From: Blasia pusilla
Lineage: Eukaryota
Assembly (NCBI GenBank): GCA_050084515.1
Contig: CM114271.1
Span: 13,702,001-13,766,000, forward strand
Length of the DNA stretch: 64,000 bases
Reading direction: 5' to 3'
Positions 7,701 through 64,000 of the stretch are shown here, one piece after another (the stretch's first letter is position 1; each line of letters begins with the position of its first letter). The notes beneath the pieces are model-generated. The model did no database searches and had not been told where the DNA came from. It worked only from the letters and a program-made list of their open reading frames with translations. The position numbers and the translations under genes are program-made.

Positions 7701-7889
7701 ACAATTAATTTTTTGTTATTAAACAAAATTTGCCACATCAATTTTTCTAGTCCATCTTAGTTGTATTTTAGGACTAAATTTTGACATGTTGGAACTTTTA
7801 GCCTATCTAGTTGTAAGACTAGTGCTTATGGACTTAGTTGTAAATTTTCTAGTGCTAAATCACTCTTTTCCTTCTAGTGAAGTCTTTGT

Positions 7890-14360: not shown

Positions 14361-14447
<87 letters not shown>
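14361..14447. repeat. (CT)n microsatellite
   Basis: Direct reading. Confidence 0.98.

Positions 14448-30540: not shown

Positions 30541-30543
<3 letters not shown>

Positions 30544-30595
<52 letters not shown>
30544..30595. repeat. (AG)n microsatellite
   Basis: Direct reading. Confidence 0.97.
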
Positions 30596-32975: not shown

Positions 32976-33695
<720 letters not shown>

Positions 33696-39900: not shown

Positions 39901-39971
39901 TATGTCCCCTCCCAACGGAAACGCCTTTGCCCCAGAGGATCTCGATCCGCTCTCTAGCATCCACGGTGCTC

Positions 39972-41672: not shown

Positions 41673-41999
41673 GGGTATCGGTGGTTGCTATGGTGCAACC
41701 CCGTCTCGAACAACAACACTCAGCTGCTCTTCTGCAGCCAACTGCAAACTCTAATCTCCTCCACATGCAGTGCCCGAAACCACGCTCGATGTTGTGGCTA
41801 TCATCTCCTGGCGTACCTGCAAAACATCCCAAGAAGTCCAAGGGTGTCTCTCCCGATCTCCCCTGGTGCATAGATCTCCTCGGGTCTCGCCCCCACCCAC
41901 TGCCTCCACCATCTCGGTAGGCATGGGGCTCACCAAAGCAACCGCTGTGATCTGTTGCAATCTCATACGACGCTGCTCAGCCACTCCCAAGCAGAGGAT

Positions 42000-42935: not shown

Positions 42936-43274
42936 TCCCCCGGGATACACCACACAATGGGTGTGGTATCCAAGGGTGTCATCGTAGCACTCCTTGCTAC
43001 CTTGGGTTCCTCAGACCCGTCACGCTCCGGTGCAAACGCTTCACTCCACGCCGTCTGCACGTGCTCATCTGCCAATCGTCGAAGCTCCTCAGTCGAGCCC
43101 CACAACAGCACCTCTCCTCCACGGAATGATATAGCTACCATAACACTCCTCTCCATAGAAATGTCAGGAACGGGAGTATCCTCTGCATGGACATGTCCCT
43201 CAATCAAATCACTAGGCCAAGTGATGGCACTGCTAAATGCTGCTAAGGTCGCCATCTCTCCTGGCCGTTGTTCG

Positions 43275-43800
43275 TCATCGCACTGTGAATCGAACGGGTA
43301 ATGAGCTAAGGCACCCATCACTTGACTGCCATCCTGGTCTGTAGGACGCTGACTCCTCCCAGTAATCCAGGGAAAACCCCATCGGGTATAACACTGCTCC
43401 ACGAACCAAGACGTCATATGACTCTGCACCAGTCACTATCGCCTTGGCCCACACCATGGACTCATCTGTAGGATGTCCCAGGAAAATCCTCACCACGACC
43501 TCTTGTCGGGTGATATACTATGTGGTACTCGCTCCACCCAAGGATGTCTGTATCCGGAATGGACAACGCTCCACATCGGCTCTCGTCAAGCCCAATCCTC
43601 TGAATAACGCTTTCCCCAACATCAGGGGTTGCGCTCCTGAATCCAACAAGACGCATTGCGGACTAAAAGCTCTACCTCTAGGACTCACCAAGTGGAAGAC
43701 CTTTCCTCGGTTATCCAACAACACAACACCAGGACAAGCCATGACACGCTCTATCGGGGGTCTAGCGGGCATCTCCGCCATTCTAGCAGCCGCAGCCTGC
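43275..43800 (-). pseudogene. Element 1 aspartic protease
   Basis: CVLLDSGAQPLMLG active site and YDVLV(R/G)G C-terminal motif; frameshifted. Confidence 0.85.
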
Positions 43801-44387
43801 CATGAATCTGACGTGGAAGGTCCGAGCATCGGCTCCAAGGGCAGGTCAATCACCTCCTCTGCAATCACCTTTGAACGTGATGCACGAACTCCAACTCCGC
43901 GCTCACATAGCGACGCGGCCAGCCAAAAAGCCTCGGCGGGCGTACCCCCCAACGTCATAACATCGGAAGCAGAAAATAAAGGAGTGCGGTACACAACGGT
44001 GGCCGCCCCCAACAATGTGCTCGACAGATGCCCCTCCTGAGCATCAACAATAGAAGTCGTCGCACTCGCTTCTCCCATCGCCCTTTGTGCCTGCACACCA
44101 ATAACATCACCACCTCTCAAGGAACTTTGATGAGGACCCATCGATGGGGTCCTCATCGCTTCGGACAACGTGAAAGACTGAGGAAGCCTAGTCTATTTTC
44201 TGGCTTCCCCTCGCTGTGGATCAAACTCTGCGGCTGCTCCACGCGTCACAACTGCGGCGGCCTCCATGTGGGCAACCCCGCACATCCAACCAGGATCCTC
44301 CAGATCTCTAGCTGCTCCATATGATGTCGATGCCACGAATCTGGCATCAGGTAACCTCAATGCCATAGTGGCAATCTGCTCCTGTAG

Positions 44388-45878
44388 CTACTGTATGTGA
44401 GCAGCCATCCCAGCCTCACGTCCGGCGTCTCCCTTGGCGCGTCTAGGTGGTGGTACTCTACCTCCTCCACGGGCAGCTCCACCACCCTGTCGGGCAACTC
44501 CAGCTCCTCGGTCCCCAACGGGACCACCTAGTGCACGATCTCTAGGCCCACCCGGACCGGCTACTCGCTCTGGTGCCCTCTCTGGCCCTCGGTCCGAACG
44601 TAACTCAGGATGTAAACTGAAACACCTGGCGCATGTATGACCATACCTCTGACAATAGTCACACTGATAACCTCCTGGTGCAGCACCATCTCCTCCTCCA
44701 TGCTGAGGCATACGTCCATGACCCTGACGAGTGCAATGGCACTGATGATGGGCTCCACCACATGACCAACAAGTAATAGTAGGCGGCTGCTGTTGAGCCG
44801 CATATGAAGGCGCAGGTCTTTGTGCCACAGGCTCCCGGTATCCTCCCTGAGCTTGTGGTGCCACAGTTGACCTATCTCGGAGTCCACGTTGCTGCACAGG
44901 TGGTGCAGCCAATCGCGATTGCTCTCGCCCAGAACCCATGGTGGCTACGATATCCTCCGCCATGTTGCGCTCAATGTTCTCGGAGGTCCTAAGAACATCT
45001 CTCAACATAGGGGAGGTTTTCATAAGAAGCACCCCCTCCTGCACCCGTGGCCGCAGGGTCTAGTCCAGCATCGCGTACCATGACTGGATAGCCTGAGCCT
45101 CTATCACACCCTGAGTGACGTTGATCAACCGGCGCAAGCGAGTGTAAGCCTCACGTAAACTCTCACCCGGGCGCCTTAGGAAGTTGTGGATGCTCCGCAA
45201 CTTTTCCGTCCGTACCCCTTGGTAGCTCGCCCTCAACTTAACAAAGAACTCAACCACGGGGTTGAACCTGGGACCAACTCGACTAGACGGTGCAACTGCT
45301 CCAATGCGAGTGACCCCTCCTAAAACATCACTAGTGGAAGAGGAAGTAGCCTCTCCTGACTCCTCCTCCTCATCTGGGAATGGCTCCGTCCATGACACAT
45401 AGTGTGGGTCGTAGTAGAGTCGCCATGCCTCAATCTCCTGGGCATATATGTGGGAAAACTCATGGTAATCGTCCATGGGTGCCCCCTCTAAATGCTGGAA
45501 CATACCATTCCATGCTGTAAACGGGTTGAACTCTCTAGAGTTCCTGGCCCGCTGGGAGTCGCACCAACTCCTAAAATCTGTTATGGAATCGTGCAACTCA
45601 ATCATACCTACTGCACTTGAAAACCTACGCGGTCCTCTACCCCGGTCGTCCATCTCGTACGCCCAACTAGTAGGACCACTCAAAATGTGTGGCGATGTGC
45701 TCACAAATTCCTCTACACCCTCCCCCTCATCTGACGATGACACAGAAGGAGGTCGAGGTGGTCCCTGAAGTGAAGACCCTCGGAACCTCACGCCACTCCG
45801 CGTAAAACCTCTAGAGCTACTCTCGGGTTCACCACCTCGCCTCTCAAAGTCCCGAACGGACGCCGTGATGACTCTCAT
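44388..45878 (-). pseudogene. Element 1 gag with two CCHC-type zinc knuckles
   Basis: FRSWCD...FNPFTAW..MFQHLEGAPMDDYHEF; RRPGESLREAYTRLRRL; CWSCGGAHHQCHC and CDYCQRYGHTCARC. Confidence 0.85.
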
Positions 45879-48004
45879 GCCTTTCTCACCCGATCACTCT
45901 TGCCTCGCGAGTTATCCCTCAATCACTCATCCCAAACATGCGGCACTCGATCTACACACTCCCTCTCGAGACATGTAACGTGCGGCAATAAGCGGCGTGG
46001 TGCGGCAAATCGACCAGGCTATCATCTCATTGACAACCTACCCTCAACTCCGGACATCCCACATAGGTCTATGTCCCCTAAGTCACATACATAAATGATA
46101 CTCTCAGCATCCACACACCCAATATCCCCAAATAAACTACCCAAATCCCAGAATCCCTCACACGTATAGGGTAAAGGACCAGGATGGGTAACCTGAACAC
46201 ATGTCGATGTCGCTCCTCAGCAGCTGCGAATCTCGACCCCAACTCGGTCGTGGAGACAACTCCTCCAATCAGCAAGTCATACTCCTCCCGTACTGACGTT
46301 GCTCAATAATCCTCGATAGACGGTGCGGTTCTAGCGGAACGGTGCGGCGTTGCAAGCGGCACGGAACGGCTACAAACGGCACGACCCTCGATGATGGGAT
46401 GCGGCACTCGGCGGCATACCCTCCTCAATCAAAAATAAACCCACACTTTGCTCCACAATGTCGGAGCGGCTCTGCAATCAAGACGGTGCGGTGTGCGGCC
46501 ACGAGCGGCACGGCGCGGCAATCAGCGGCGCGTTGCGGCTACGGGCGTCACGGCACGGTACCCGATCGTCGTTGAGCGGCTACCAATCACAACATAGCAG
46601 GAGGAAATCAAAACTCAAACACTATAACATGAGGTCATATGCCATCACACGTTGATGATGGTGGCGGCCAAAGCAAAGTACGTGATGGCGACGCAAGTCC
46701 GAGAATCAACGAACGTTGTGGAAGACCCTCCACTCCGTAACGGCGGCAATGGCAACCAAGGGTGGACAAGGGACGGTGGACCATTGAAGATGACGGTTGA
46801 CCATTGATGGTGATGGTTGACCATTGATGATGAAAGTTGACCGTTGACGGTTGACAGTGACCATGACGGCGACGGCCGCCGCCGGTGTGGTGGCTGATTT
46901 AGGGTTTGCACAATTTAACCCTAAAAATCGCCTAGCAATGGCAATTTTTGCAAGATTGACCATACCTTTTTGCTCCCAACTCCAAATTGCACATTTTTTG
47001 TTGCACAGCGTCCACAGCTTGACGATCTACGCCAGTATCAAAAAAATATTTGGAATTGAACATTCCAATAAAAACTGACAAGGACTGTCGTAAAGCCCAA
47101 TGTCTCTTTCTTCTACCCAACATTCCTCCCAACAAAAATGTAAAACTTGTAAAAATGCAAATCAGCAAGCAACATGGTGCTCCCAAAAGCATCGGCATGG
47201 GGTAACCCGCCCCCATACTCAATCCCTATCAGAAATTGGGCAGCGCTTCCGCACGCCACTCTTCCACACGAAAAATCGGCAAATGCAAGGAACAATCCAA
47301 GCAACCCTTGCTCCGATGAGCACTCCCATGAGCCGTTGAACGGGGAACACGGTCCCCAAGCTGCAAAAACAGCGAGTGACCAGCGAGCTCCCCCATGAAG
47401 CTCTCTCACTCTCTCATTCTCTAATTTTGCATTCTCTCTTTCTCTCATTCTCTCTTTGTAAAGTAAGATCCAATCTCTCTCTACACAATCTCACACCATA
47501 GCTCTCAAAGGTGTGCACTCTCTCTCATATCAAACCAAACCCACTCTCCTAATGAGAAGCTTGGGTTACACTCACAAGGCAAGGGAACATAGTTCCGCCG
47601 CCTCATGCCAAGAAGTTCAACAAAGAAAGAATGAGCTCTCAAGCTCTCTCTCCTTGGGATATATACCCCTCCCCTCTCCCAAGCTCTCTCCATGGTAACC
47701 TATTCTCCCAAGTCACCTCCTTGGTTTTTGACCTGATGTAGGAGGTCAAGGGCCAGTTACCAAAAATAGAAAGTCGATCACATACTCAAAATAGTACTTA
47801 TCTAAAATAGTAAGTTCCTCAATATAGCTCCAAATGAGCCAAAACGAAGGCCTCAACAAGTCATCCTTGACCTCCTTGTCTTCCACTACTCTTGAAGACG
47901 CTCTACTAGATCTCACCGATCTATCCTAAAGGACGTGACAACCTATTTCCAACCTTATCCGACATCTCAAGACGAAGTTAAGCCGATACAAATTTTTTAC
48001 CCTC

Positions 48005-48245
48005 TATGTCATCGACCTAGTAGAACTCTATCTCTAGGCTAACTAAGATGTGACAATCTTTGTGCTCATACACATCGCCACATAATCAACATCATTGGTC
48101 ACATCTACACACCACACAAGATTAATCTTCCTAACACACACATAGATCCATACATAAAAAAAATATTTACCCATATATATCGAGACCACACTACCGCCCC
48201 CTAGTTGGTAGTTGAGTTCCCTTAACTCTAAATAGTAGACATCAC
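48005..48245 (-). mobile_element. Older third-subfamily relic (B end, 2 nt, A, PPT) into which element 1 appears to be nested
   Basis: GTGACA (48050-48055) + AT + A-like CTTTGTGCTCATACACATCG..., followed by CCGCCCCCTAGTTGGT, as at 38397. Confidence 0.6.
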
Positions 48246-48479
48246 ATCTATCCAATATAATCCACTATTCTATACATATATAGCACCCTCGGTGTCGTCA
48301 TACCCGCCATATCTCCCAGCACATACTCATTTGTGAGTCCATCTCCTCTATCTCTACCTAGAGATATCAATGTATCCGGATCTCATCCTACATTGCAACT
48401 CTACAGCTACCCACCATATTGATCCCTCTAAAGAGATCTAACACTTTTGCACCCTCCTCCAGATACTACCATACAATAG

Positions 48480-49230
48480 ATGTGATATCCGAAGATGTCA
48501 AGTCTCCACTCCAAGAGCATGATGTTGCTCGATATGGGAGTGTAGGGAGAATCCGTGTAGATAGAGGTGAGTTGAATGTGGAGGAAGCACGAGAGTTCTT
48601 CAATAAGTATGGACTCCAGTTGAGATTAACAACCTCTATGAATCCGGAGGCAAAGGGCAAGAGCGCAAGGGGACATCCGCCAATCATTCAAGCATTGGTA
48701 AAGGTGTGTGGAGACCATTATGCTCATTGGCCTAGATTGCTTCCATTTGCTTCATGGGCATATACGATCACTCACAACAGCGTTACAAGGTTCATGCCTA
48801 CATAGTTGATGCCAGGTCAAAAGCCAATAATGCCAGCAGAAGGAGATATTCCCACTTGGATGGATTTACCGTGGGAGGACGGGCTCGATAGGGAAGAGCT
48901 CATAGCACTTTGAATGTAGCATCTAGAGCGGCGTGAAGTAGATATCGCAGAAGTATTAGTCAAAAGGAAGGAAGCAAGGTTGAAAAATAAGGAACGCTTC
49001 GACAAAAGTCATCGACTTGAGAAGGAGCCTATAAGAGAAGGAGATTGGGTCTTGGTGCACGACAACAACCTCGACAACCAGCATAGTACTATTAAAAAAT
49101 GTGCACGTCATTGGTTTGGTCCATATATTATAGCCTTTTTTTTTTACAATGCCACTTAGAAATTACAAGAGCTAGATATCACAATTCTCAAGTTGCCCAT
49201 TGTAGAAAAAAGGGTGAATATTTTCCGTAG
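48480..49230 (+). mobile_element. Integrase fragment of a different Gypsy lineage, followed by a PPT-like tract and probable 3' LTR start at 49362
   Basis: RYG..GRIRVDRGEL...TTSMNPEAKGKSARGH...WPRLLPFA.WA...GQKPIMP...GDWVLV...WFGPY (GPY/F); GGAGGAGGTGAA|TGTCGT at 49350-49367. Confidence 0.85.
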
Positions 49231-50704
49231 ATGTGAGGGATTTTTGATTTTGACGAATCAGATCAATCTTTCTAGAGATACAGTAAAAATAAGTCTGAAT
49301 AAGATAGCAAGAAGTCTTGACCTGCATATACCGGAGGATGTGCAGATTTGGAGGAGGTGAATGTCGTATAGTAAAATCACCTACCATATAAACTCCTCTC
49401 TCATTAAGTGTTAGAGAGAGTTTTATTAGTATGAAGTAAATTAGCTTAGGAAAAGAAAATTTTCATATTTAAACCTCTTTATGGTGTCTCTTTTATGCGG
49501 GCCCAATTTTAGGAAAAGAGGTAATAAATTAGACATGAGATTATAAAAATAAAGTAGGGGATTGGTGAATTAATGAAAGAAAAGCAAAAGTACTCTTGGT
49601 TTGTGGCTAGGGTAGTTGGGGTAATTTGGAAGATATGAGGTGAGTACAGGATTTGTCATGACCATATGGATTATGTCGTAAAGTATAGTGTGCTAGTAGA
49701 GGCCATTCCTTATGTAGGACCGTAGTGGCTTGGTAGAGATGCGGTTTCATACATAGGGTTGGAGGTTACTCAGTTGGGGGTGACTTTCCCAGTAGGTTGG
49801 AGGATATAAGGTGGAGTGCACTCAAAGAACAATCAATTCTTTGAGTTGAGCCTGTTGCGTTAGGAGTTAGCCTTGGTAGTGAGTAGAGCTCTTGGCTATG
49901 GTGTTTCCCGCAAGCTTCGACATAGATTCTCCCATCGTGGAGTGGGTTTGGCTCGATTGTATGTGATTGTATACGTGTTTTATGACAGTAGGTCTTTCAG
50001 GGATTTCACTCAAAGAACTGGAGTAGATCGATGGTAGCTTCGATTGTAGATCAGTAGGATCTGGTTAGGGCTGATTGTGTACTCAGCCGTGGATGTTCGT
50101 GGCTTGTGGGCTATTCTGCCTGGAGGACGCTTAACTGCTGAGTTCTTAACTATGCAAGTGTACACACTGTTGTAGCTCATTTGGTGCTGTTCGGAGAGTT
50201 GTTAGGCGCTTTATGCATCTAAGGTTTTTGGTTGATGTACCTCTAGCGCATAGTACGGTGTAGCCTCTCCATGCAGGTGATATTTTCAGGTGCTGCGAGT
50301 TCGACTAGCACGTCATCGACCCGCGGCGGAGTAGCTATTGCGTTAGAATTGTGTGGTGGGTTTTGTGGAGTCAGGGGGCACCACGTTTGGTGGATTGTGT
50401 TACCTTGATTTCCATTTGCGATTGGAGGGTTGTCGTTGGACTTCCTGTGTTTGGATCCCCTCCATCGGTGCTTCTTGCTTGCGCGCCCATTGTTAGGGTT
50501 GACGCTGATTTCTAGAGTAGTGTTACTCCTGTGTGCTACCGATAGTGAGGCTGGAGTGATGACCAGTAGACCGTGGGAGGCTTCTTGTGGTGATGACATG
50601 TTAGGTTGCCTACATCCATAGCTAGTAGAGCTAGAATAGTATAGCGACATCGACGTCACTTGGTTATTTGGTGGTGGTAATTTGGTGGTGGTGCGGCATC
50701 GGCG

Positions 50705-52200
50705 TTGGTCATCACGGAGCTGTCGGGTGGTCTGGTTGGGGACCATGGTGCGGACAATGGTGGTTTCACACGGAGTGGATTTAGGTATCGGCTACCTTTT
50801 CCACTTCCGACGGTTGATGAAGAGGAGGACGAGGGTGTTCCAAACACCGAGTCTTCTACGTTGTTATCGAGTGTTGCAGCTCCATTGATTTGGGACATGG
50901 ACGGTGGATATGGGGCCATGAAGGGCCCACGACGATACTCGGGTGCAGTGGGCACCATTGAGTCGGAGGACTTCATGCAGGAGTTTGATACGTGGTGTGA
51001 TATGCAGATGTTATGAACGCACGTTGTTTACACCCTTCTTGGCTTGGAAGGGGTTGTTTCAAAGACTTGTAAGGACCACCCATGGATGATTACCATGAGT
51101 TTAGGAAGGACCATGTTGCTGAGATTGAGGCATGGAGACAATATTGGTCTCCAGGCTATGTGTCTATCACCCATGGTGGTATTGGTAGTAGTGCTCTTAC
51201 TATGCCAACCAGCCCGACGTTGAGTGGTACGAGTACGAGCCGGAGTGGGGGTACTAGTAGAGGTACTAGTGCCCCACCATCGTTCAGCCCGGTTGCAGAG
51301 TTCTTCAAGAGGTTGAAGAAGAACTATCAGGGAGTGAAGACGGAGAAGTTGAGGAATCTTCAGAATTTGAGCGAAAGACGGTGAGAGTCTTCGTGAGGCA
51401 TACACTCGTATCGACGCTTGATTTCGATTACCAGGGTGTGACCGAGGATCAGCGATCGATTTTGGTATGGGATCTTGGACAGAGATTTGCGCCGTAGGGT
51501 ACGTGATGCTACTCTTATGAGTGATGATTCACCCACATTGACCCATATGTTTGCTCTATCTCGAGAAGATTGAGCTTAACATGGTGAAGGAGAGAGTGGT
51601 GACATCTGATTCAAGAGGGGATACAACTACTACTTCTCGTGTTCGGCAGCCCATCTCACAGTCTCATAGTAGTGGTGGTGGTAGTAGTAGTGGGAGTCGT
51701 GGGGGGTACACACGACCTCAGTCAGGTCCTAGAGGGATACTTGCGCAGAGACCATTGCCTTCATTTGCTGCCCCGCAACAAGGAAAGTCATGTTGGATAT
51801 GTGGAGGTGATCATGTTAGGAAGTTTTGTCCCCAAGAGGATGGGAGACGGACTTTGGAGGATGGGCTTCAGTTGGCCCCAACTTAGTGTGATCATTGCGG
51901 GAGACCAGGTCATCCTCGAGAGCGCTTTGCCTTGATCTTCATCCAGAGTTGAGATCAAGCCGCGGCCGTGGTGGAGTAGCTCCGAGAGGCTGAGGTGGTA
52001 GAGGTGGTAGAGGTGGACCAGTGGTTGGAGAGCCTAAGGTGGCTACCCCTACCACTACGATAGAGTCAGCTATGGCTGCCAGGATTGAGCAGTTGGAGTA
52101 GAAGTTGGCTACTATGGCTGGTATCCAGCATAGATCATGTTCGGGAGCAAGGGCTTCCACCTCTTATGGAGGGGATGATCTCTCTTATATGGCGAGTGCA
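50705..52200 (+). pseudogene. Element 2 gag with two zinc knuckles
   Basis: RRYSGAVGTIE..DFMQEFDTWCD; MDDYHEF; YQGVKTEKLR; CWICGGDHVRKFC and CDHCGRPGH. Confidence 0.85.
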
Positions 52201-52651
52201 AAGATGAAAGTTGAGGCATCATCGGTGCAAGAACAGAGGAGCCACTCGGCGCCGAGCCACGTGGTGCTCTTGTGGAGTTGGACCCACAGAGGGGTGAGGG
52301 GGAGGCAGGCTAGGCTTCCCGGTCATTCTTGTTGTCTGAGGTGCTTAGGACTCCATCCATGGTTCCTACGCAGCCTATTGAGCCGACAGTGGGGACTGAG
52401 GCATCTACATCGCGTGTAGTAGACACGGATGCATCATCCAGTGCAATATTGCGGATGGCAACTTCAATATTGGGATCCCCATTGTTTTCGGCCATGGAGC
52501 TAATGGCTTTAGGAGTTGACTTAGCTCCTGTATTTCAGCTAGCAGCCACGTTGTGTGAACGTGGGGGTGTTACTGCTACACGTGTTGAGGTGGATGAGGG
52601 TGTTGCGGTGGAGCGACCCTCTATGTCGAGTAGCATTAAGTACCGTGCTAC

Positions 52652-53150
52652 TTGGCGGCAGCGGCGGCGAAGATGGATGCATTACCAGCCCGGCCAGCCA
52701 TTGATCGTGAGAGGCTTACACCTGGTGTATGTATGTTGGACAACCGGAGTGGGATATTCCGATTGGTGAGTCCTACAGGACAGGTGTATAGACCAGATAG
52801 AGTCTTATTAGACTCTGGTGCCCAACCTTTGATGTTGGGAAAGGCGGCATGTATTGGTTTGGGTATTTGGAGGTCAGAGCTTGAGCCTTGCCCATTCCGA
52901 TTCAAACATCACTTGGAGGAGCCAATGATAGATCTCAATTCATGACACGGGAGAAGTTTTTTTCTGATTGAGACCAGATCATGCGATCGATAGCTCCCGA
53001 TTAGGAGTATCTCGGTAGTCTCATCACCGAGTCGTATGATGTACTAGTTGGAGGAGCGATTGTATCCGATGGGTTTTCAGATGGATTCTTCGGATCGAGA
53101 GGCGTCTTATAGACCTGGTTGGCAGTCCGGGATGGACGTATGAGCCAAGT
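52652..53150 (+). pseudogene. Element 2 aspartic protease
   Basis: RVLLDSGAQPLMLG; ESYDVLVGGA. Confidence 0.88.
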
Positions 53151-53528
53151 TCTGTGAGATTTATTTGTGGGGCTCGACCAGAGGGTCTTCCCCAACAAAG
53201 ATGTTAGCATCCGTGGTCTGGTTTCAAAGTGGAGTAGTCACTTGGCTAGAGACTTTTTGGAGGGTAATATTTCTGCTATGGGTTCTCATGCGCTTGAGGA
53301 GGTAGAGGAGGTCCCTATTCTTGCAGATGGCATCCTCATTGTTGGATGTGCCACTTTGGAGTTCAGCGGTGCACTACGGCAGAGGCGATCGCCTAGTGTA
53401 GGAGGCTTGGTGTGAGGTGTTATACCTCACGAGGAAGAGGAGGCCCCACGGCGGACTCCTACTTCTGGTCCATTAGGTTATCCCTTTGGATACTACACCC
53501 ATTGTATGGCAAGTATCCGCCGGAGGGC

Positions 53529-54460
53529 ATTTGTGTGTTAGATCTCTTTGGTGGGATTAGCACTGGTTTGGTCTTAGATGTTGCAGGCCCGTATTCTGTG
53601 GGGAGATACGTGTATGTGGGAGCGAGATGAGACGGCCCGAGAGTCTCATCCCGACATATTGGTCAGTTGATGCGGAGATATCCTGAGTTGTTGCCGCCAT
53701 CAGCTATTCGTGGGTACCAGCGTGCTTTACCATCACACATTGCATTGTTGGGGGCGCAGGACCTTGAGAGGGTTGGTCCTGTGGATTTGGTGATTGCTGG
53801 ATGGCCATGTCAGGGTCATACACGTGCTGGTTGTGGTGAGGGATTACATGACCCTAGGTCTTGTTTGTTTTGGGAGATGTTACGGGTGTTACGACATCTT
53901 CAGGTTCATCAGGCACGTGCTCTAGCTTTCATTGTGGAGAATGTTCCATTGTTGGGTGACACTCGGACCCGGATGAGGGCGAGTGTTCATGAGGTGCGGT
54001 CTTGGATTGGACCAGCGGTGTTGTTGGATGCAGCCCGAGTTGGCTCGCCTGCACATTGTCCACGCTTGTGGTGGACAAACTTGTTGCCCAGGGAGGTTCT
54101 ACGTCGAGCATATGATGCAGTGCAGCGGGATCCTTGCCTTACCGTGGATAGTATCTTGGATACTGGGCGACTTTCTCAGGTGGTGAGGGTTATTGATCGC
54201 TCACCCATGGCAGTGGTGAACCGTGTGGGCCAGCCTAGGATGGTACTACCCACATTTGTGAGTTTTCCCTCGTCACATGCCTACAGAGAAGGTGGTCCGG
54301 GGCTTGTATGGGATTCTCATGTACGACAGTTGGTGGAGCCTAACGCTGATGAGAGAGAGCGTGCGATGGGATTTGCTACTGGTGTGACACCGGTTACTTC
54401 CATTTCTGAGGCTTCACGACGTCATGTGTTGGGTCAGGCCATGGACCTGAATTGTTTAAG
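53529..54460 (+). pseudogene. Element 2 C5 cytosine DNA methyltransferase domain
   Basis: Motif I ICVLDLFGGISTG; IV GPVDLVIAGWPCQG (catalytic PC); GLHDPRSCLFWEMLRVL; VI FIVENVP; VIII LDAARVGSPAHCPRLWWTNL; IX ERERAMGF; X RRHVLGQAM. Frameshifts after motif I. Confidence 0.95.
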
Positions 54461-54728
54461 TTGGATTTTGAGTCTTGGTATGGCCGAGCAGCGTCGACTT
54501 CGGACTTTGTCTGTGGGTCTTCCACCCCTTGTAATGAGCTCGATGGCTACCGGGACGGTAGAGGCATCGGCTGGGGGCGAGGAGAGTAGTATTTTGCATC
54601 CTTGGAGTAAATGGGATGTAATGGCTGGGCATGTGGAGTTGGTTGCTCATGCTGGTGGAGGAGTTATTTGCTCAGATGATGGTGTAGCTAAGGGTGTACC
54701 ATTTCGTGAGGGGGTTGCGTAGCAGCCA

Positions 54729-56507
54729 ATGGCATCGTCCTCTCCCTCTAGTGTGCCAGTGGAGGAGACTTGGGAGCCATTACTTGGGCCCAAGCTTACG
54801 GGAGGTGAGAAACGACGCTTGACACAGTTCCTACGTGCTTATAGGAGTTGTTTTGCCTTTACCATGAAGGAGTTGGGTTCTCTGGTTGGACCGAGTATAC
54901 GGATTGATTTGGCTAGTGATACGCCAATCTTCTGTCGTCCCTACCGATATAGTGATATGGAGAGGGACCTGATTCAGAGTAGGACGTTGGACCTTTTGGA
55001 GGCTGGATTAGTGGAGTTGTCGCATGAAGAGTATGCATTAGCCACTGTCATGCGTGCTAAAAAGGATATGCATGGCAACTACACGAATAGGCGGATGTGT
55101 GGAGATTACCGTCCTATCAATCGGCAAACCAAGGCCGATAGGTATGCCATGCCTATACCTGAGGAGATCTTTGATGTGGTGGGACAGGAAAAGATTTTCA
55201 CTACTTTGGATCTTCGGGCAGGATACCATCAATTGCCGATTCGGGAGAGTGACAAGGCCAAGACAACATTTTGGGGTGTCAACTCTCATGGCAAGGATTG
55301 TTTGTACCAGTGGAAATTCTTATCCTTTGGGTTGAAGAATGCACCTACCGAGTTTCAGAGAGTTATGGACAGGATCCTAGCAGGGTTGGATTTTGTTCGG
55401 TGTTACATTGATGATATCTTGGTGTTTAGTAACACGGTGGAGGAGCATCAGATACATTTGCAGATGGTGTTTGAGCGGTTGAAAGCTCATGGTCTACGTT
55501 TGCATCCAGGAAAGTGTAAGTTCTTCCATGAGGATGTTGAGTACTTGGGTCATGTGATCTATCCAGGTGGTTTAGGAGTTCAGCAAGCAAAGGTGGAGGC
55601 TATTGCACTTATTCCGCGTCCGGTAGATGTGAGTAGAGTTCGGGCATTCATGGGATTGGCGAACTACTATCGGAGGTATGTGAAGGGATTTAGTGCTATG
55701 GCAAAGCCTTTGAACCAATTGCTGAAATCAGATCAAGAGTGGCACTGGGGAGATGATCAGGAGAGAGCTTTTGTGGAGCTTAAGGCCTACTTGGTGGCGG
55801 CGCTAATCTTGAGGAGACCTATTAGAGGGCGCCCATTTTAGTTACACACTGATTAGAGTAGGTTAGGACTTGGAGCCGTGTTGACACAACATGATGATGA
55901 GCACATGGAGTTTGTGGTGGCCTATGCAAGTCGTTCGAATAATGCAGCGGAGTCGCGCTATAGTTCATATGAGGGAGAGTGCTTAGCAGTAGTGTGGGTT
56001 GTGGCACACTTTAGGTGTTACTTGTTTGGCACACAGTTTACCCTTGTTTCTGATCACCAGCCGCTCAAGTGGTTGATGGAGTCTGACAAGGTTACAGGGA
56101 AGCTTGCACGGTGGGCTCTTATCTTACAGGAGTATGACTTCCAAGTGGTACATAGACCTGGAGTTGGCAACCTTGATGCTGATGGGTTGAGTAGGAACCC
56201 ATGTACTAGCCAAGAGGATACAACTGGGGCTAGATGGCATGGCGAGGTTGATGAGGAGATGGTGCCAGGTTGGCATGCATCCGCCTTTTTATGTTGGTTA
56301 GGGGTGGACTCTAGTATGGAGGATCACATGATATCTTACTCTAGTGAGAGAGTAGATGGCCAGCCTTCAGATCCTAAGGTTGGAAATGGTGGTACGGATC
56401 AGCGTGATATTCATTATGATGCGTTGGTGTTGGAGTTCCTACGGACCAGTAGGGTGCCAGGCATAGTGAGTGCCAAGGAGCGAGACCGTGTTCTTCAGCG
56501 TGCTTAG
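54729..56507 (+). pseudogene. Element 2 reverse transcriptase and RNase H
   Basis: RMCGDYRPINRQT, LDLRAGYHQL, FGLKNAP, YIDDILVFS, YLGHVI; RNase H YASRSNN.AE..Y...EGECLA, SDHQPLKWL, ADGLSR. Confidence 0.95.
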
Positions 56508-56540
56508 AGGTATCGATTAGAGGGAACACATACTCTCCAC

Positions 56541-57837
56541 GTGTGGGAGGATGGTAGAGTACGAGTAGTGCCACATTTGGCTCAGAGAGACCGCATTGTG
56601 CGACATGCGCATGAGGAGTTGGGACATTTTTGGGTAAAGCGTAAGTATAGCTTACTCCTTGGCCAGTATTGGTGGCGTGGCATGCATACTCAGGTGCAGC
56701 AATTGGTGTTACATTGTATGGTTTGTGACCAGGTGAGGGCATCATTCAATGCCCCTACACCACAATTACACCCCTTTCCTATTATGGGGTTGGGTTACCG
56801 TTGGAGTGTGGACTTTGCGGGACCGTTACCGTTGACTGTACGACATCATCGATATGTGTTGGTGATGGTGGAGCACTTCTCCAAGTGGATTGAGTTGGTG
56901 GCATTACCGGACAAGGCAAGTGAGGGAACGGCGTATGCGTTTCTTGATAGAGTGCTTAGTCATTTTGGTGCACCGGTGAAGTGTCGACCGACCGAGTCTG
57001 AGTTTCAAGGTGAGTTTCAGGTCTTGTGTGACAAGGCGTTGATTGATCATCGGACCACGTCTCGAGATCATCCAGGCGGATGGTTTGGCTGAGCGTGTGA
57101 TTCAGATGAAGTGAAGAGGGCATTGGGCAAGTATGGCCTCTGAAGGGCATCTTGAGACAGGATATTCAGTTGCCATGGTTAGCCATGGGGTATAGGTTCA
57201 GTCACCAAGCATCCTTGGCTTCCTTCTCACCTTATAATCTGTTATACGGCCGAGATCCAGACTTGCCAGCAGCAATTCGTCGGGAGTCTAGTGAGGTGGT
57301 GAACCTTGATGACCCAGAGATGTGGATGAGAGTGCGTTCTCAGCGGGCAGAGCTCTTTCGGAGAGTTATGCCAACATCCTTTGAGAATCTTGCCATTGCT
57401 CAACACAGGGATACATTGCGGTATGCATTCGGGGTGGAGGTTATCGACCATCGATTCGTAGGTTCCATGTGGGGGACTATGTCTATTTGCAGCAGATTGC
57501 ACCGACAACGTTGGATGTGACGGCAGGCCGTACTATTTTACAAGTGCGAGAGGTGTTAGCTTCTGGAGTTCTCATGTTGGAGGGTCGTGATGGAGTTGTT
57601 TGGAAGGACCATGTGCGTAATTGTGCGTCATGTCATCTTCCAAATGTGGATGGTACTGTTGACCCAAGCTTAGCCATGATCCGTGCTAGCTTGAGGTGCA
57701 TGTTGTGTGGGTCTGCTGGTAACGCTGCTCGTATGTTGGTGTGTGATCGGTGTTCTAGGGGTTGGCACATGATGTGTTTGACTCCACGTATGGATGTTGT
57801 TCCTACAGGAAGGTGGGTTTGTCCTCGATGTACTTAG
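56541..57837 (+). pseudogene. Element 2 DDE integrase with C-terminal PHD finger (57697-57837)
   Basis: AHEELGH...CMVC; WSVDFAGPL; EHFSKWIELV; PHD CMLC..CDRC..HMMC..WVCPRC (C4HC3). Confidence 0.95.
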
Positions 57838-59227
57838 GAGAGGTAGATGACTTGATCTTTGCATGATATGGATTACAGATGTGCGACTAACGATGGGGCA
57901 ACCTAGCACCCGGACTTTTGATTCGAGCACCCAAGAAGGTGTATAGCATGTAGTAGATGTATAGGCCTACCTGGGAGTTAGAGGGACCTAACCGCTTGAT
58001 TAGGGGGCGAGTTGTGGTACACTTGTGTTTGTGGATGCTCTCGTCTATGTTATGTATGTATGTGAGTATGGTATATCAGCGATGTATGTTGTATGACGAT
58101 GTGGATTTGCACGACAGCTGTCATGACCATACGGATTATGTCGTAGATTATAGTGTGCTAGTAGAGGCCATTCCTTATGTAGGACCGTAGTGGCTAGGTA
58201 GAGATGCGGTTTCATTCATAGGGTTGGGGGTTACTCAGTTGGGGGTGACTTTCCCAATAGGCCCGCTCTTAGTTTGGAGGATATAGTGTGGAGACCCAAA
58301 GAACAGTCAGTTCTTTGAGTTGAGCCTCTTGCGTTGGGAGTTAGCCTTTGTAGTGAGTAGAGCTCTTGGCTATGGTGTTTCCCGCAAGCTTCGACCTAGA
58401 TTCTCCCATCGTGGAGTGGGTTTGGCTCGATTGTATGTGATTGTATACGTGTTTTATGACAATAGGTCTTTCACGGATTTTAGTTGTGGTACACTTGTGT
58501 TTGTGGATGCTCTCGTCTATGTTATGTATGTATGTGAGTATGGTATATCAGCGATGTATGTTGTATGACGATGTGGATTCACACGACAGATTATATTTTG
58601 GAAGAAATAAGAGATAATCTACTTATGTCAAAATATTATTGGCTAAGCCTTGAGAGGAAGCCATGTGGCACAAGATAAGATTAGTCATATTTTATATTTT
58701 TGTGGATCCCTTGTGAGTATATAAAGAGGAGGGACCTTCAAGGGTTTATCACCTTCTATTTCATTCTTGAGTTATCGTATCATTCTTGAGTGGATGGCAT
58801 TGGGCTTGCTTGCTCTTCCAATGAGAATGGATTACCCCTCTTGAGAGAATAACTTGACCATGATTTATTCTTTGAGAGGATTTTAGAGTGTGATATGTGT
58901 AGAGTTGAGAGACTTGTTATCTTAGGGAAGTTTAGTCATATTAGAGATAGTGGATGGTTTTGGCTTGTTAGTTTCCCAATGAGAATGGATTACTCCTCTT
59001 GGGAGAGCAACTCCAGCAAAATCCATTCTTAAGGTAAGTAGAGGATGCCCGTCAAGTATGGATAGGGGTGGAGCACGAGTTGTACATGATTTTCCTTTCC
59101 TTAACGCGTAGCACGTGAAGATTCTCCTCGTAGATAGACACTACTTTACTTGTTATCTAGTTTACCACTTTGGAGAGGCATTCATGAACCAGTTCATGCA
59201 GTCTCCAACTCTGGTGATTCTTCCTAT

Positions 59228-59579
59228 TGTCACGTTTGGGAGGACATAGGATTGTAAATTGTATGTTCTTATATAGCAATCCATGGATGTTAATATGCCT
59301 GCTTATATAGGATTTAACACTAGTTGTGTTATTTTTCTTGTCTACAAGCATAAAGTAGTTTACAGGGACTTTATAGTTAGGAGTTTTGGTGTTCGATGTT
59401 ATACAGAGGTGATCTCCTCGGCACTACCATTCGTGATTCTTACCGTGAGAGAATACAGGGTTTATATAATAATTTTGTATTGAAAAAGGGGAACTTCTTA
59501 TAGAGTGCACCTTGCATCAACCCCGTTTTCCGCAGCTAGAAGGTATGCTCTTACTCAAAGAAAATCTCTCGACACGATA
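59228..59579 (+). mobile_element. Isolated LTR (about 352 bp) of the tRNA-primed Gypsy family at the window end, in opposite orientation
   Basis: TGTCACG...GACACGATA; aligns with the reverse complement of 63659-64000. No TSD (CCTAT / ATGTC). Confidence 0.85.
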
Positions 59580-59599
59580 ATGTCTCAAGCACTTGCTGT

Positions 59600-61830
59600 G
59601 AGGGCAAGTCCTCCACCTCCTCACCAACTATCTATAAACGCAAGACACAATATGGAGGCTAGCCTTAACACCTCCATTGGTCCAACTTCCATTGCCGCCA
59701 ACTCCATAGCCAAAAATGAAGGAGTCTGGCTCACTCTAGTGGCCATCTCAAAAACATTGACATTGGCTCCATCCAAGATGGCACAAGAGTCATCTCTCCA
59801 ACCTCTTGTGAGGTCAACGCACCTATCCCACCTATAGGCACCCCTAGTTGTCTAGGCACCATCGATTGTATGTGAAGTGTCTAGAATGTGAAAGATTGTG
59901 GAACCCTTGCCTATCGCCCATCGGTCCCCTACTCTAGATCGATCTCCACACTACCTCTAAATGGTTTGGTCATTCTCATAGCACCGAGTCACCACCGTAG
60001 GAGCCTCTACCTGAGCCGCACTACACATAAATCTCAAGCTCGCATAATCATCCTCCATATCCAGATACAATGTGGAGGTTTGAGCTACATTAGCTACTCT
60101 TGTCTTTGTGCCTATCACTAGAGGCATCATCGTCATGGTAGCAATCCTCTACTCTAATTGATCGGTGCAAGTGCTCGTGGAAGTGAGGATGTTGCATTGG
60201 GTGTATGTCCTCCATCTCCTCTGGCTGGTGATGAAACCCTACCACCACAGTCATCAAATCCTTGATCTCTACCAACTCTCTTGCCCTCAAGCCCTTGGCC
60301 TACCTCTGGACGTAGCTCTCAGCCAATATCAAAACACATATCCCTAATATGACCATATTGGTGATAATGGTCATACCGCAACTATGGTGGGACCATCCTA
60401 GGTGGCTCCTCAACACTTGGAGGCATCCTTGGCCCTCTACCATGTTGTGGTCAGTCCCTTTCCCTATGGGGACCAACAAGCCAAGGTTGGTCCTTAACCT
60501 AACATATCTACACATCAACGACTAGACAACCTTGATATAAATTTGATATGGAATGTGAAATCTAATGAAACTTGCAATTAGCTATGCTTCATCCAAACAT
60601 CCACTCAATGATACACATTGTGGTAACAGTAGGAGAAAGTCTAAAATATACTCTCAATATGTGTGATCTCTGATCAATCCTAGCCCACTCTCCAAGAGAG
60701 AATCTAGGCTCAATACATCCAAGTTGCACTATATTACATATCCCAACATGGATCTGATCCAAGGAAGAGGAGGAGATTTGAATGAGCTTCATCCGAGGTT
60801 TACCCCCTCGGGCACCTCCATGGGTGACTTGTACACATAGGTAACCTCCTCCTAGCAAGTCACTAATAACCTGGAGTACACAAGGTACTAACTCTCTAAC
60901 AACTACACATGCGGTCCTCTCATGAGACCAATCACCAACTAACCCTTAACCTTATAGGCCCAATTAAGTGGCTCCACACAGAGAATGGGAGGGTCAATCT
61001 CTCCAAGGTTGCCACTCCTCATAAAAGAAGGGTGACCTACACTCATAAATTACCTCTTAAGATTAGGTCACACATGACCTCTAAAAATAGGGAAGTACAA
61101 GACCCCTTTAAGTCCTCAATACTATCTTGCCCTACGTCTCATCTACCATGATAACCACCTTTAATGTAGGTTTCGCCGTGTGAAGCAACATTGGATCTTA
61201 AACTCTCCTCCATAGCTTCTGGTCCAAAGCCCTGTACCAATATTGTAGTGAGTGTGCCTTGATCACTCCATATGTGGCAATGATCAATCACTGCTTGTGC
61301 GTGAACGCCTCTCTCAGACTCTCACCCGATCTCCGCTGAAAATCTTGTAGACTCTTCAGTTTGTCAGTCGGCATGCCTTGGTACGTAGCTCCTCCTTAAC
61401 TATCAAAATAACTACACTGTAGGACTAAAATTGGGTGGTACTCTAGCACTAGGGGTCTCTGCCACCTCGCCGCCCTCACTACCATTATCTCCATCTAGTC
61501 TCTAGGCTAATGGTGTAGGCCTCTCGTCTCTCACTATCCCATTCTACGCCTCGCAGCCACTAGTGGATACTTACCTTGGAGCCTAATATATCCTCCAAGC
61601 ATCAATCTCTACCAAGTGTAGAAACCAAAACTCCCTGTAGTCATCCATTGGAGGACCCTCTAAGTGCTGGAGAAAAACCTTCCACAATGTCCAAGGGTTG
61701 AACCACATAGGGACTCGTATCTTTTGGAAGTCGCACCATTTGTCAAAATCTTAGATGAAATCATCTAAGTCAATGTTTCCTACCGCACCTAAGAAACGAC
61801 GTATGTCTTGGTGGCCCATGGCATCCATCT
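59600..61830 (-). mobile_element. Highly degenerate gag/pre-protease relic of the DNMT-PHD Gypsy family
   Basis: RFLGAVGNIDLDDFI.DFDKWCD...WFNPWTLW..FLQHLEGPPMDDYREF (61620-61800) and VFEMAT.....PSFLAMEL (about 59700-59755) match elements 1 and 2. Confidence 0.8.
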
Positions 61831-64000
61831 CCCTCCACTCTCGCCTCTTCTCCTTGTAAGTCAAGCTTTTGTCCAAAAACTTGGCAAAGCTCTTCATCTT
61901 CTTCTTCTGTGATGTCAGTATCCAATGCCCTCACCATCACCATATCTCCAGTCATTTGCCTTTTCCTTTTGATCACATCTATGATCAACTCATGGAAGTC
62001 ACGTTTGGCTATGCCCAAGACTTCCCTCAAAGAAAACTCTATTTTCGCATCCAAAATCCTATCCTCAAGAATCTCTTTTAAATTCGTTCTTGTCTCTATA
62101 TCAAATTGCAACTTGTATGTAGGAGTCTTACACTTGGTCTTCTGGGAAGACCTCAATTCTTTCTCCTTCATTCCACCTTCTTTCATTTGAGAATCCATCA
62201 TAGATTCAGATGTAGAAGGCCCTTCTTCTCTTGATGGTTGCGCCTCTGGTTGCCCTTTCCTTCTTACGGTCCTCGCTCTTCTTGCAGCTTCCTCGAGATC
62301 AGCACCATCATTGTCGCATCTCCTCTTCTCCTCCACACTAGCATCTTGCCAACTCACATGTTTCTCTTGTGCTAGGTATGCTTTAACACATCCAACTTCC
62401 ACTGGATCATCCCATCCAGTCAGATGACGGATAGTCTCTGCCCCTCGTATCATCACTTCTCGAGGAAATTGTAATGATTCACTTTTAGCTACAGATACAA
62501 TAGGCACTTCTATTTTTTCTGCAAAGGTATCAGAATCTAATGCCGTAGTGGCAACTCCTACTTGACTTCTCACTAAGCCTTTCATTCCTCCTCTACCAAA
62601 GTTGGTATTCAACAACATACCAGTCTGCGTTGAATGAATCTTCCCATCTTTGAAGTTTACTATTCCATTCCTAAGAGCTTCTGAAAACTCCTCACATTCT
62701 CGACGTTGATGCTCAACACTATCACACCATATACATTTTCTCACAAAGTTCCTACTTATTGAAGGAGCACCAACACTAGGATTCCTATCAAGTTAAAGCT
62801 CAGCCATTTCTACTCTCAATTCTCTCAAACCTTTCACCAACTCATCTATAGCAGGATCTTCAAGTTTTGTTGAAACGGGCTTAGGCAATGGATTTGAAAT
62901 TGATACCTCCGACTTGAATAGTGCGGTTCTACCTCTACTTCGATTTTGCTTTGTAAGGATAGCAACAGCTTCTTCCACTTTCTTCCAATTAGTGCTAATA
63001 TCTCCTTCTTCGGTCTTGTCCGCCAACATTATGAAAATTTTGTCCTCCAAATTCTCGTCAGCCGCCTCAAGGAATAACTCAGTTTTCCTCAAGTCTAGAG
63101 TTGCTCTTTCGGAAGAAGAAAGCTGAAAAAACCGCTTCTCAAACTCACGCAATAATTCATTTGGAGTCATTCCCTTCCCTGGACGTTGCTTTGTCCATTT
63201 AAAAAACTCCTCTTAGTCACCCGATCCACATCATCATCGAAGAATTCTCTTTTAAGCAACTGCTCATACTCCTCCCACGAGGTTGAATTTTCTGCTCTCA
63301 ACTTCTTCACTTGACTACGAATCTCTTGTATTAGAGCTAACTCAAAACTTGACGCCATATCATCTTCGGGTACACGATTTACCTCCATCTCACAAACGTA
63401 CTCTCGAACATACTTGGTGATGTTTCTCCCATCAAATCTCCCCAATTTCTTTACAATCGCTTGAAGAGCCCTTGTTGATCTTTGCTCTCCTATGTGAACT
63501 CCTCCTTGTTGGCTCAACAATGTTGTCAAAGTTCATAGAAGATCCTCAGCTCCCTCAGTTCCCATTGATGAAGTACTACCAAAAGTAGTCATCTTGATTA
63601 GACTCCAACTTGCAAACACAATCTACCGTCTCAAAGATCTCTCAGTGGAAGCACCATTTGTCGTGTCGAGAGTCTTTCTTCGAGTAAGGGCATGCCTCCT
63701 AGCTGCGGCAGACGCGGTCGATGCAAGATGAACTCTCTGAGAAGATCTCCTTTTTCAATATAAAATTATTATGTATACTCTCCATTCTCTCACGATAGGT
63801 ATCACAAATGGAAGTGCCGAGTCGATCACTTCTTCGTAACATCGGATCCCAAAATTCCTAACTATAAAATCCCTATAAGCTATTTTACGCTTGTATACGA
63901 GGAAGATAGCACAAGTAGTATTAAACCCTACTTGATCCGGCTTATTAATGTCCATGGATTGCTATATAAGGACATATAAAGTACAATCCCATGTCCTTCC
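61830..64000 (-). mobile_element. 5' part of a conventional Gypsy element: LTR (63659 to beyond 64000), tRNA PBS (63639-63656), gag with CIWC...H....C knuckle
   Basis: LTR ends ...CACGACA, then AA, then TGGTGCTTCCACTGAGAG (3'-CCA tRNA complement, resembles tRNA-Thr). Gag: RFDGRNITKYVREY..EME; CIWCDSVEHQRREC; PTYKL..DIE...LKEILEDRILDAKIEFSLREVLGIAK. Confidence 0.88.

Follow-up and report, generated by a model that had tools for sequence, protein, structure and literature searches.

Evidence that two old, inactivated Ty3/Gypsy-type insertions belong to a retroelement family carrying a DNMT3-class methyltransferase

Is a cytosine methyltransferase that lies within a retroelement polyprotein a regular, selected part of that element, and, if so, what could a transposon do with it? 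Plant genomes defend themselves against transposons chiefly by cytosine methylation. The question is raised by a 64-kb stretch of DNA (contig CM114271.1, positions 13,702,001 to 13,766,000; 44.6% G+C, no N), referred to here as the window, in which we found two related Ty3/Gypsy-type retroelements, element 2 at 49654-58588 on the plus strand and element 1 at 37625-47940 on the minus strand. A first-pass annotation of this DNA had placed a C5 cytosine DNA methyltransferase (DNMT) inside the Gypsy polyprotein of both elements, between the protease and the reverse transcriptase (RT), and both the placement and the coordinates proved right; a tblastn search with the element 2 domain revealed exactly two DNMT copies in the window, one in each element. 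In our reading, the elements are very probably two old, inactivated insertions of a DNMT3-carrying Ty3/Gypsy-type family, for which we infer steps of stop codon read-through and DNA methylation. The first open reading frame of the elements (ORF1) encodes Gag, a protease, and the DNMT3-class domain, and the second (ORF2), which follows in frame, encodes RT, RNase H, and a DDE integrase with a C-terminal PHD finger.

The coding region of element 2 starts with the Gag region of ORF1 (50640-52600), which holds a CCHC-like knuckle, CWICGGDHVRKFC, and is broken by frame changes and stops, the high-scoring segment pairs (HSPs) with the intact ORF1 relative P0183 being spread over all three frames. 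It is followed by an aspartic protease region, LLDSGAQPLMLGK (52640-52945), for which the Pfam scan gave no match of its own, the homologous place being Asp_protease_2 in the relatives P0143 and P0147. The DNMT and its C-terminal tail (53502-54719) end ORF1, and an in-frame TAG CAG CCA (54720-54728) forms the boundary to ORF2. In line downstream of the DNMT, Pfam matches were obtained for the RT at the start of ORF2 (54723-55841; PF00078, 112 bits), RNase H (55857-56507; PF17917, 112 bits), the integrase with its H2C2 zinc domain and DDE core (56508-57092; PF17921, 47 bits, and PF00665 or rve, 31.9 bits, slightly below the cutoff of 32.6, which relatives exceed), and an integrase C-terminal region that ends in the PHD finger (57385-57837; PF00628, 42 bits, cutoff 24). 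Element 1 has the same domain order on the minus strand, with the Gag and protease part of ORF1 at 43521-45893, the DNMT domain at 41754-42935, the in-frame boundary TAG CAA CCA at 41682-41690, and RT, RNase H, integrase, and PHD finger (PF00628, 45 bits) in an ORF2 at 38586-41687. The order protease-RT-RNase H-integrase with a DDE integrase (RVT_1, RT_RNaseH, Integrase_H2C2, rve) is that of Ty3/Gypsy pol, and the DNMT occupies the same pol position in both elements, collinear with RT, as had been noted. The PHD finger after the integrase (57697-57837, 42 bits, in element 2; 38586-38730, 45 bits, in element 1) stands where chromoviruses have their chromodomain.

To which class of methyltransferase does the domain belong? 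In element 2, the single frame 53502-54719 holds motif I, VLDLFGGISTGL (from about 53535), and then, in unpermuted order, motifs IV (GWPCQG), VI (ENVP), VIII (AHCPRLWWTN), IX (ERERAMGF), and X (VLGQA), and the domain matched PF00145 in Pfam with 37.0 bits (cutoff 22, E 3.3e-9). Element 1 retains motif I, GWPC, ENV, and ERAMGF, with motif X in a degenerate form (VLGRD), and its fragments alone (P0002, P0003) gave no PF00145 match; relatives scored 27.6-45.5 bits, with P0171 under the cutoff at 20.6. When the element 2 protein was searched against PDB with phmmer, DNMT3A was the best match (E 1.4e-7), followed by DNMT3B and DNMT3C, with DRM2 at about 0.4. A family profile of 19 members, searched against PDB, likewise matched DNMT3A best (6e-19, 71.5 bits), then DNMT3C (7e-18) and DNMT3B (2e-17), and after them tobacco DRM (1.7e-8), M.HaeIII (5e-7), M.HhaI (3e-6), AtDRM2 (1e-5), and DNMT2 (5e-4); DNMT1 was not listed at E<=0.01. 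The DRM chains (E 1.7e-8 to 1e-5) align over motifs I-IV only, at their C-terminal part. An AlphaFold2 model was made of the element 2 domain itself, with X at the stop and family sequences as the alignment, and gave 70-87 on the predicted local distance difference test (pLDDT) in the Rossmann core. All 40 Foldseek rows shown (ranks 1-50) were DNMT3A/3B entries (E about 5e-12), with TM-scores on the target of 0.62-0.67 for methyltransferase-domain entries and 0.34-0.46 for longer full-length or complex chains. Judged by profile and modelled fold against the solved methyltransferases, the domain is of the DNMT3 class, in agreement with the first impression that it was DNMT3-like and not a permuted DRM-like enzyme. 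A DRM identity was rejected, as DRM proteins are circularly permuted (VI-X before I-V) and the order here is I-IV-VI-VIII-IX-X, and so was a bacterial-type identity, both profile and fold being closer to DNMT3.

The domain had also been suggested to be under selection. We determined the ratio of nonsynonymous to synonymous substitution rates (dN/dS) from HSP-guided codon alignments by the Nei-Gojobori method. Between elements 2 and 1, the ratio for the DNMT was 0.16 (345 codons; dS about 2.05, near saturation; pN/pS 0.38), alongside 0.13 for RT, 0.15 for RNase H, 0.07 for the integrase, and 0.10 for the PHD region. The comparison of element 2 with the related locus L004 (dS about 0.67) gave 0.23 for the DNMT, 0.13 for RT, 0.18 for RNase H, 0.16 for the integrase, and 0.33 for the PHD region, and the element 2 DNMT gave 0.13 against L029 and 0.17 against L053. 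Overall, the DNMT values of 0.13-0.27 are close to those of RT. Young sister copies gave 0.5-0.76, as expected because copies decay neutrally after insertion. These ratios indicate purifying selection on the DNMT, of about the strength seen for RT, so the suggestion holds up; the accompanying remark that the repeats of the two copies have diverged strongly misses the split direct repeats described below. In the family alignment of 19 sequences, 40-77% identical to element 2, no variation occurs in GWPCQG, ENVP, H185/R188/W191/N193 of motif VIII (H..R..W.N), DERE.AMGF, or GQA, conservation is at least 90% at F16 and G18 of motif I, and the target-recognition region is the least conserved as well as the least confidently modelled part. 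Among 192 proteins scanned, 90 have G.PC followed by ENV, and 32 of these 90 have motifs I, IV, VI, IX, and X in order. The observations that might have overturned the proposal therefore came out in its favour, with a PF00145 match present, dN/dS at 0.13-0.27, and the catalytic residues invariant in the family.

The two copies in the window are nevertheless pseudogenes, incapable of making active enzyme. In element 2, a TGA interrupts the frame at 53628-53630, between motifs I and IV, and the acidic residue of motif II is gone (YVG where the family has YVE or YVD); the Gag-protease part lies in all three frames, and ORF2 has 3 stops in 766 codons. In the element 1 DNMT, a frameshift right after GWPC (about 42647) and two in-frame stops, one within motif VIII, were found, and motifs IV, VIII, and X are damaged; its ORF1 has 2 frame changes and 7 stops, and its ORF2 has 10 stops over 756 aligned codons (ORF2 residues 11-766). 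Of the claim that both copies carry motifs I, IV, VI, VIII, IX, and X unpermuted, the part that stands in full is that on element 2, where motif II is lost; in element 1, the damage to motifs IV, VIII, and X qualifies it. It is not correct that a stop at 54720-54722 is all that intervenes, both copies being dead by the lesions just listed. The flanking A repeats (described below) are 91% identical in element 2 and 96.4% in element 1, and both are therefore old insertions. The identity of B1 and B2 in element 2 is 98%, as against 91% for A1 and A2, though all four would be expected from one insertion, while in element 1 the B pair (96.9%) and the A pair are alike; the element 2 discrepancy could be due, for instance, to local gene conversion between the closely spaced copies of B.

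The stop at 54720-54722 had itself been counted as a defect. A TAG is present at the homologous codon in both window copies, followed by CAG CCA in element 2 and CAA CCA in element 1. We fetched 74 related loci from metagenome contigs, most of them with record names of a few series and so probably copies within few genomes, and the junction was readable in 48 (RT match starting at residue 1-2). A stop directly precedes the ORF2 start in 48/48 of these (TAG in 37, TAA in 11), the next codon is CAA in 47/48, and CCC then follows in 44/48 (43 of them after CAA). ORF2 continues in frame directly after the stop and starts with QP in 46/48 loci and with Q in 47/48. Among distant members, L029 (60% identical) reads TAG CAA CCA and L059/L060 (52% identical) read TAG CAA CTA; L029 has a 438-aa DNMT ORF, the TAG CAA CCA, and an ORF2 that stays open for 766 codons, as far as the contig reaches. 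ORF1 proteins in the database (P0124, P0125, P0183, P0143-P0155; 1228-1451 aa) end just past the DNMT, with an aspartic protease upstream of it in P0143 and P0147 and a CCHC knuckle in P0143. Stops other than the boundary stop are scattered among the decayed copies. Since a stop stands at that one codon in both window copies and in every readable locus, it is not damage, and the sequences identify it as a programmed ORF1/ORF2 boundary. Both window copies fit UAG CAR YYA exactly, which in the available text of PMC3542737 is the consensus (UAG_CAR_YYA) for efficient read-through in plant viruses and works with UAA too. Because the DNMT ends ORF1 (Gag-protease-DNMT), RT, RNase H, integrase, and PHD finger would need read-through.

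The ends of the elements are as unusual as their coding region. Both have split direct repeats in the layout A1-coding-B1-A2-B2, unlike plain long terminal repeats (LTRs), element 1 being the minus-strand mirror image. In element 2, the left target duplication GATT (49650-49653) is followed by A1 (49654-50006), which starts TGTCATG and contains a TATA-like box and a putative transcript start, and the 3' side consists of B1 (58010-58117, ending CACGACA), A2 (58119-58480), and B2 (58482-58588, ending GACA), after which GATT recurs at 58589-58592. The corresponding parts of element 1 are A1 at 47459-47940, with a duplication copy at 47941-47944, and B1 at 38269-38396, A2 at 37752-38267, and B2 at 37625-37751, with the other copy at 37621-37624. 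A starts TGTCA and B ends ACGACA, so that the LTR-like features of TG..CA ends and 4-bp target duplications flanking A1 and B2 (GATT in element 2, AGGT in element 1) are present, but the repeats are split, with A at the 5' side and B-A-B at the 3' side. The full layout, with the target duplication CATA, recurs in L049/L050 (one insertion, seen twice), a B1/B2 pair in L011, L069, and L058, and A1/A2 in L040 and L044, in which no B1/B2 pair was detected at >=60 nt. A purine-rich, polypurine-tract-like block ending AGGGGGCG (57970-58009) lies directly upstream of B1 in element 2; such a G-rich block directly before B1, and not before A2, is conserved in element 1, L011, L049, L050, and L069. The B1/A2 junction reads GACA-GC-TGTC or GACA-AC-TGTC, that is, a palindrome of two element ends plus 2 nt, and one reading is that the integrase may cut an end-to-end junction in circular or concatemeric DNA.

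Two further observations concern these repeats. Immediately after A1, there are 15-16 nt that can pair with a segment lying some 30 nt downstream of the TATA box inside A (47443-47458 in element 1; 50007-50022 with 49833-49847 in element 2). In element 1, this pairing is a 15-bp duplex 29 nt after the TATA box with a dG of -21.2, reached in 0/500 shuffles; it was not significant by energy in element 2 (79/500 shuffles) or L049 (77/500). As a side note only, a pairing of the sequence after A1 with the likely transcript 5' end resembles self-priming Tf1-type elements. Four RNA-seq reads from one run that join 58414 to 49987 were considered as circles and rejected as such, the likeness of A1 and A2 being the best explanation.

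How far does the family extend? Close relatives (47-81% identical) were found in Marchantia polymorpha, M. paleacea, Riccia sorocarpa, Calypogeia fissa, and several Sphagnum species; those of M. polymorpha include many annotated fragments and ORF1s. In the IQ-TREE tree, the window domain adjoins P0183 (77% identical) and then Marchantia and Calypogeia proteins. That the host is a land-plant lineage, as had been assumed, is supported indirectly by these nearest named relatives (Marchantia, Calypogeia, Riccia, Sphagnum) and by a neighbouring F-box/Kelch KIB1-4 ORF. A family-profile search covering 1.84 billion representatives returned 601 clusters at E<=1e-30, the best 150 of which all have E<=2.7e-85. 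Among these best 150 of the 601, the DNMT is joined with further retroelement domains in 108 (RT, RNase H, or integrase in 96, and Gag/protease or a downstream RT in 12) and stands alone in 42; in the 96, the DNMT stands after RT/RNase H and/or before the integrase, with 35 complete as RT-RNase H-DNMT-integrase-PHD, and the 12 have the bryophyte order.

This second order, RT-RNase H-DNMT-integrase-PHD (P0161-P0172, P0195-P0207), predominates in the wider family, its named hosts being the chlorophytes Chromochloris, Monoraphidium, and Haematococcus, and some of its members (P0161, P0162, P0164) have GWECQ in place of GWPCQ. A FastTree tree of 168 rows put the two orders on either side of one branch (SH-like support 94), a separation that 0/500 label shuffles equalled, and IQ-TREE recovered the same split (SH-aLRT 99) with 66 of the 168 rows, taken as a random sample after two long-branch rows were dropped. 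On these DNMT trees, which have no outgroup, a single change of order, in either direction, is enough for the two architectures.

We examined transcription with three stranded RNA-seq runs carrying the same species label as the best DNA match, mapped on 38651-58650 at a likeness of at least 95%. The reads fitting numbered 2668, 2563, and 2889, of which only 100, 95, and 101 were at least 99% alike, so that sister copies are the main source of the transcripts. First mates fall on the minus strand over element 2 and on the plus strand over element 1, flipping with the coding strand, and for stranded libraries of the usual kind these are therefore sense transcripts of the families of both elements. 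In element 2, the DNMT had a read depth of 19-46 and the region near the 3' end one of up to 107; in the spacer 48656-49322, depth was 0 in all three runs. Compared with the window copies, the transcribed sisters show numerous base changes, transitions for the most part, and small indels, several of which lie close to the frame breaks of element 2. The observed/expected CpG ratio was 0.65-0.73 in the elements and 0.61 in the window and is uninformative as a footprint of self-methylation.

Retrotransposons with a DNMT were on record, as the first-pass annotation had stated, in dinoflagellates and in the charophyte Klebsormidium. The available text of de Mendoza et al. 2018 (PMC5890265) describes Gypsy elements with DNMT3 in Klebsormidium nitens (KnitGypsy-Dnmt3) and terms them an independent acquisition in that lineage. 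The window elements conform to this type in the unpermuted DNMT3-type domain within a Gypsy polyprotein with key catalytic residues kept, in purifying selection (Ka/Ks < 0.2 there, 0.13-0.27 here), and in the DIRS-like A-coding-B-A-B repeats with Gypsy-type domains (its Fig. 4c legend). They differ in host, a charophyte alga there and, by the named relatives, liverworts and Sphagnum here. Neither a PHD finger nor a stop separating DNMT from RT is mentioned in the same text, and nor are target duplications or the DNMT position within Pol, points on which its figures and supplements may hold more. According to that text, the Klebsormidium domain gave no methylation in yeast, a result that the authors call inconclusive because human DNMT3B failed too, and the DNMT of Symbiodinium SymbioDIRS-Dnmt3 methylated CG de novo in yeast. 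The latter element shares the DNMT3-type domain and the A-coding-B-A-B repeats (PMC5890265, available text) but has a tyrosine recombinase, whereas the window elements have a DDE integrase with H2C2, TG..CA ends, and 4-bp duplications; no match to the tyrosine recombinase PF00589 was obtained in any scanned ORF or relative, which places the window elements outside the DIRS order. In wide protein searches that scored the 8000 most word-sharing candidates, no Klebsormidium-named protein appeared, which is weak evidence of absence.

The chlorophyte elements (Chromochloris zofingiensis P0171, Monoraphidium neglectum P0203, Haematococcus lacustris P0172) belong to the same DNMT clade at 32-40% identity and share GWPCQ, AHR.R.(W/F)WTN, EPNADERERA(M/L)G(F/Y), and an integrase followed by a PHD finger, but have the DNMT between RNase H and integrase instead of between protease and RT. 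Mammalian DNMT3A/3B/3C, the best profile and fold matches, agree in the motif order I-X, and the motif VIII/IX region aligns, at about 18-23% identity; the window domain differs in having no PWWP or ADD, in being part of a retroelement polyprotein, and in a longer, poorly modelled region matching the target-recognition domain. Chromoviruses, in the available text of PMC6317226, likewise have a Gypsy backbone with a chromatin-reader module on the integrase C-terminus, but the reader here is a PHD finger, DNMT and split repeats are present here, and no chromodomain match was found among the scanned ORFs.

The literature we covered, whose figures and supplements may hold more, contained no paper on the chlorophyte RT-RNase H-DNMT-integrase-PHD elements and no report of the leaky stop, of a PHD finger in Gypsy-DNMT3 elements, or of the second architecture. 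The available texts of PMC12344493 (2025) and preprint 10.64898/2026.05.21.726589 (2026) give Gypsy-DNMT3 as present in 'streptophytes'; a land-plant report of such elements was not found in the literature, though a bryophyte copy may stand in figures and supplements, e.g., the trees of PMC5890265 or PMC12344493. Gypsy-DNMT3 is thus a kind already known, several structural points may be new, and what was described for K. nitens in 2018 as an 'independent acquisition' may belong to a green-lineage family that is much wider and older and has two domain orders.

The results reported above lead to a proposal for what the methyltransferase does. We hypothesize that the UAG is likely read through at low frequency, which would yield Gag-protease-DNMT in Gag-like amounts and Gag-protease-DNMT-RT-RNase H-integrase-PHD in small amounts, and that the methyltransferase would enter the particle as part of both precursors. 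More tentatively, after protease cleavage the enzyme might methylate the new DNA of the element or the DNA of the integration site; each new copy would in that case carry 5-methylcytosine on arrival, and the PHD finger of the integrase would steer integration by reading histone tails. Still more doubtful, when taken as a whole, is the picture of a land-plant lineage with a working Gag-frame DNMT3, many enzymes per particle, DNA methylated before or during integration, and an integrase that uses the palindromic end junction; if it were true, such use of the junction would explain the split repeats together with the TG..CA ends and the 4-bp duplications. Several observations weigh against the proposal. 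Both window copies are dead, few reads are at least 99% alike to them, and the Klebsormidium domain, the one streptophyte enzyme assayed, gave no detectable methylation in yeast. The dS between elements 2 and 1 is about 1.4-2.9 across domains and thus near saturation. The AlphaFold2 model is moderate (predicted TM-score 0.64, mean pLDDT 59), with region 213-267 (target recognition) and the tail 339-406 below 50. At the stop, 35/48 junctions read TAG CAA CCC, the last base of which is off YYA, and 11/48 have TAA; the 48/48 count itself is partly inheritance from few master copies, because probably few genomes are represented.

These last points could also mean that the stop separating DNMT from RT reflects shared decay, or that ORF2 is reached by splicing, reinitiation, or a separate transcript. 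We consider this very unlikely: the stop is at one codon across lineages 52-77% identical in protein while other stops are scattered, ORF2 is always in frame after it, intact database ORF1 proteins end there, and both window copies match the read-through consensus in full. Independent support for the boundary comes from the two diverged window copies, L029, and L059/L060. That a host DNMT3 gene came to lie next to or inside transposon debris by accident has a negligible probability, as the same order is found in two copies about 73-76% identical in DNA, inside repeats with target duplications, and recurs in the 74 related loci and in dozens of polyproteins from the database; on this recurrence and these flanked copies we rejected an accidental host-gene fusion.

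It is also conceivable, though quite improbable, that the domain is kept for a role other than DNA methylation, acting on element RNA (as DNMT2 does on tRNA) or as a DNA- or S-adenosylmethionine (SAM)-binding module that works in the particle without catalytic turnover. The yeast result with the Klebsormidium domain (PMC5890265, available text) would agree with such a role, as would a target-recognition region that is weakly conserved and poorly modelled and the GWECQ of P0161, P0162, and P0164 in the second architecture; against it, the cysteine of PC, the glutamate of ENV, the motif VIII arginine, and SAM motifs I and X are invariant in the bryophyte-type alignment, and the profile matches DNMT3A/B/C at about 1e-18 but DNMT2 at 5e-4. 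Somewhat less improbable, but still unlikely, is an enzyme that targets the host genome or competing elements in trans, silencing rivals or dampening its own family so as to limit harm to the host. Its ORF1 placement implies far more DNMT than RT or integrase, beyond the need of one cDNA per particle, and the family is abundant in Marchantia annotations; however, a Gag-fused enzyme would stay in particles until cleaved, and the CpG ratio of the elements is not distinct from that of the window. We therefore retain as the overall explanation two inactivated insertions of a DNMT3-carrying Ty3/Gypsy-type family.

The window holds other features besides the two elements. A third, partial family member at 7882-9712, consisting of Gag and the 5' region only, is 72-76% identical to element 1 at 44816-46306 in the same orientation and had no DNMT by tblastn. 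A fragment at 32982-33693 resembles the 3' end of element 1 (internal end and B, then part of A) with 79-89% identity and is interrupted by a dinucleotide microsatellite (33417-33510), the unit of which is also present at 14361-14447 and, inverted, at 30543-30595. Two inverted copies of a 340-nt repeat (59241-59580 and 63658-63997, 81% identical) flank a 340-aa ORF (61773-62792, minus strand) that has a CCHC-like motif and matches DUF4100 weakly, at 26 bits where the cutoff is 27.9; this may be a further mobile element, one with inverted ends. Just one clear cellular gene was seen in the window, the F-box/Kelch ORF mentioned above, a single-exon host ORF of 406 aa at 17618-18835 on the minus strand (F-box 41 bits, Kelch/KIB1-4 beta-propeller 36 bits), with an observed/expected CpG ratio of 0.93 against 0.61 for the window.

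A transposon that brings a de novo methyltransferase of its own reverses the usual picture of methylation versus transposon. To the systems already described, the present analysis adds a family in land plants (liverworts, Sphagnum), including a model species with genetic tools, that is transcribed today and has a PHD finger, its enzyme lying, to judge from sequence, in the abundantly made Gag-protease frame. The value of the finding lies in this family, which is of land plants, transcribed, under selection, and joins its DNMT to Gag; the copies in the window are its relics. If the proposal is true, the role of a transposon-borne methyltransferase would be directly testable in a land plant, because intact annotated copies are present in the transformable Marchantia polymorpha.

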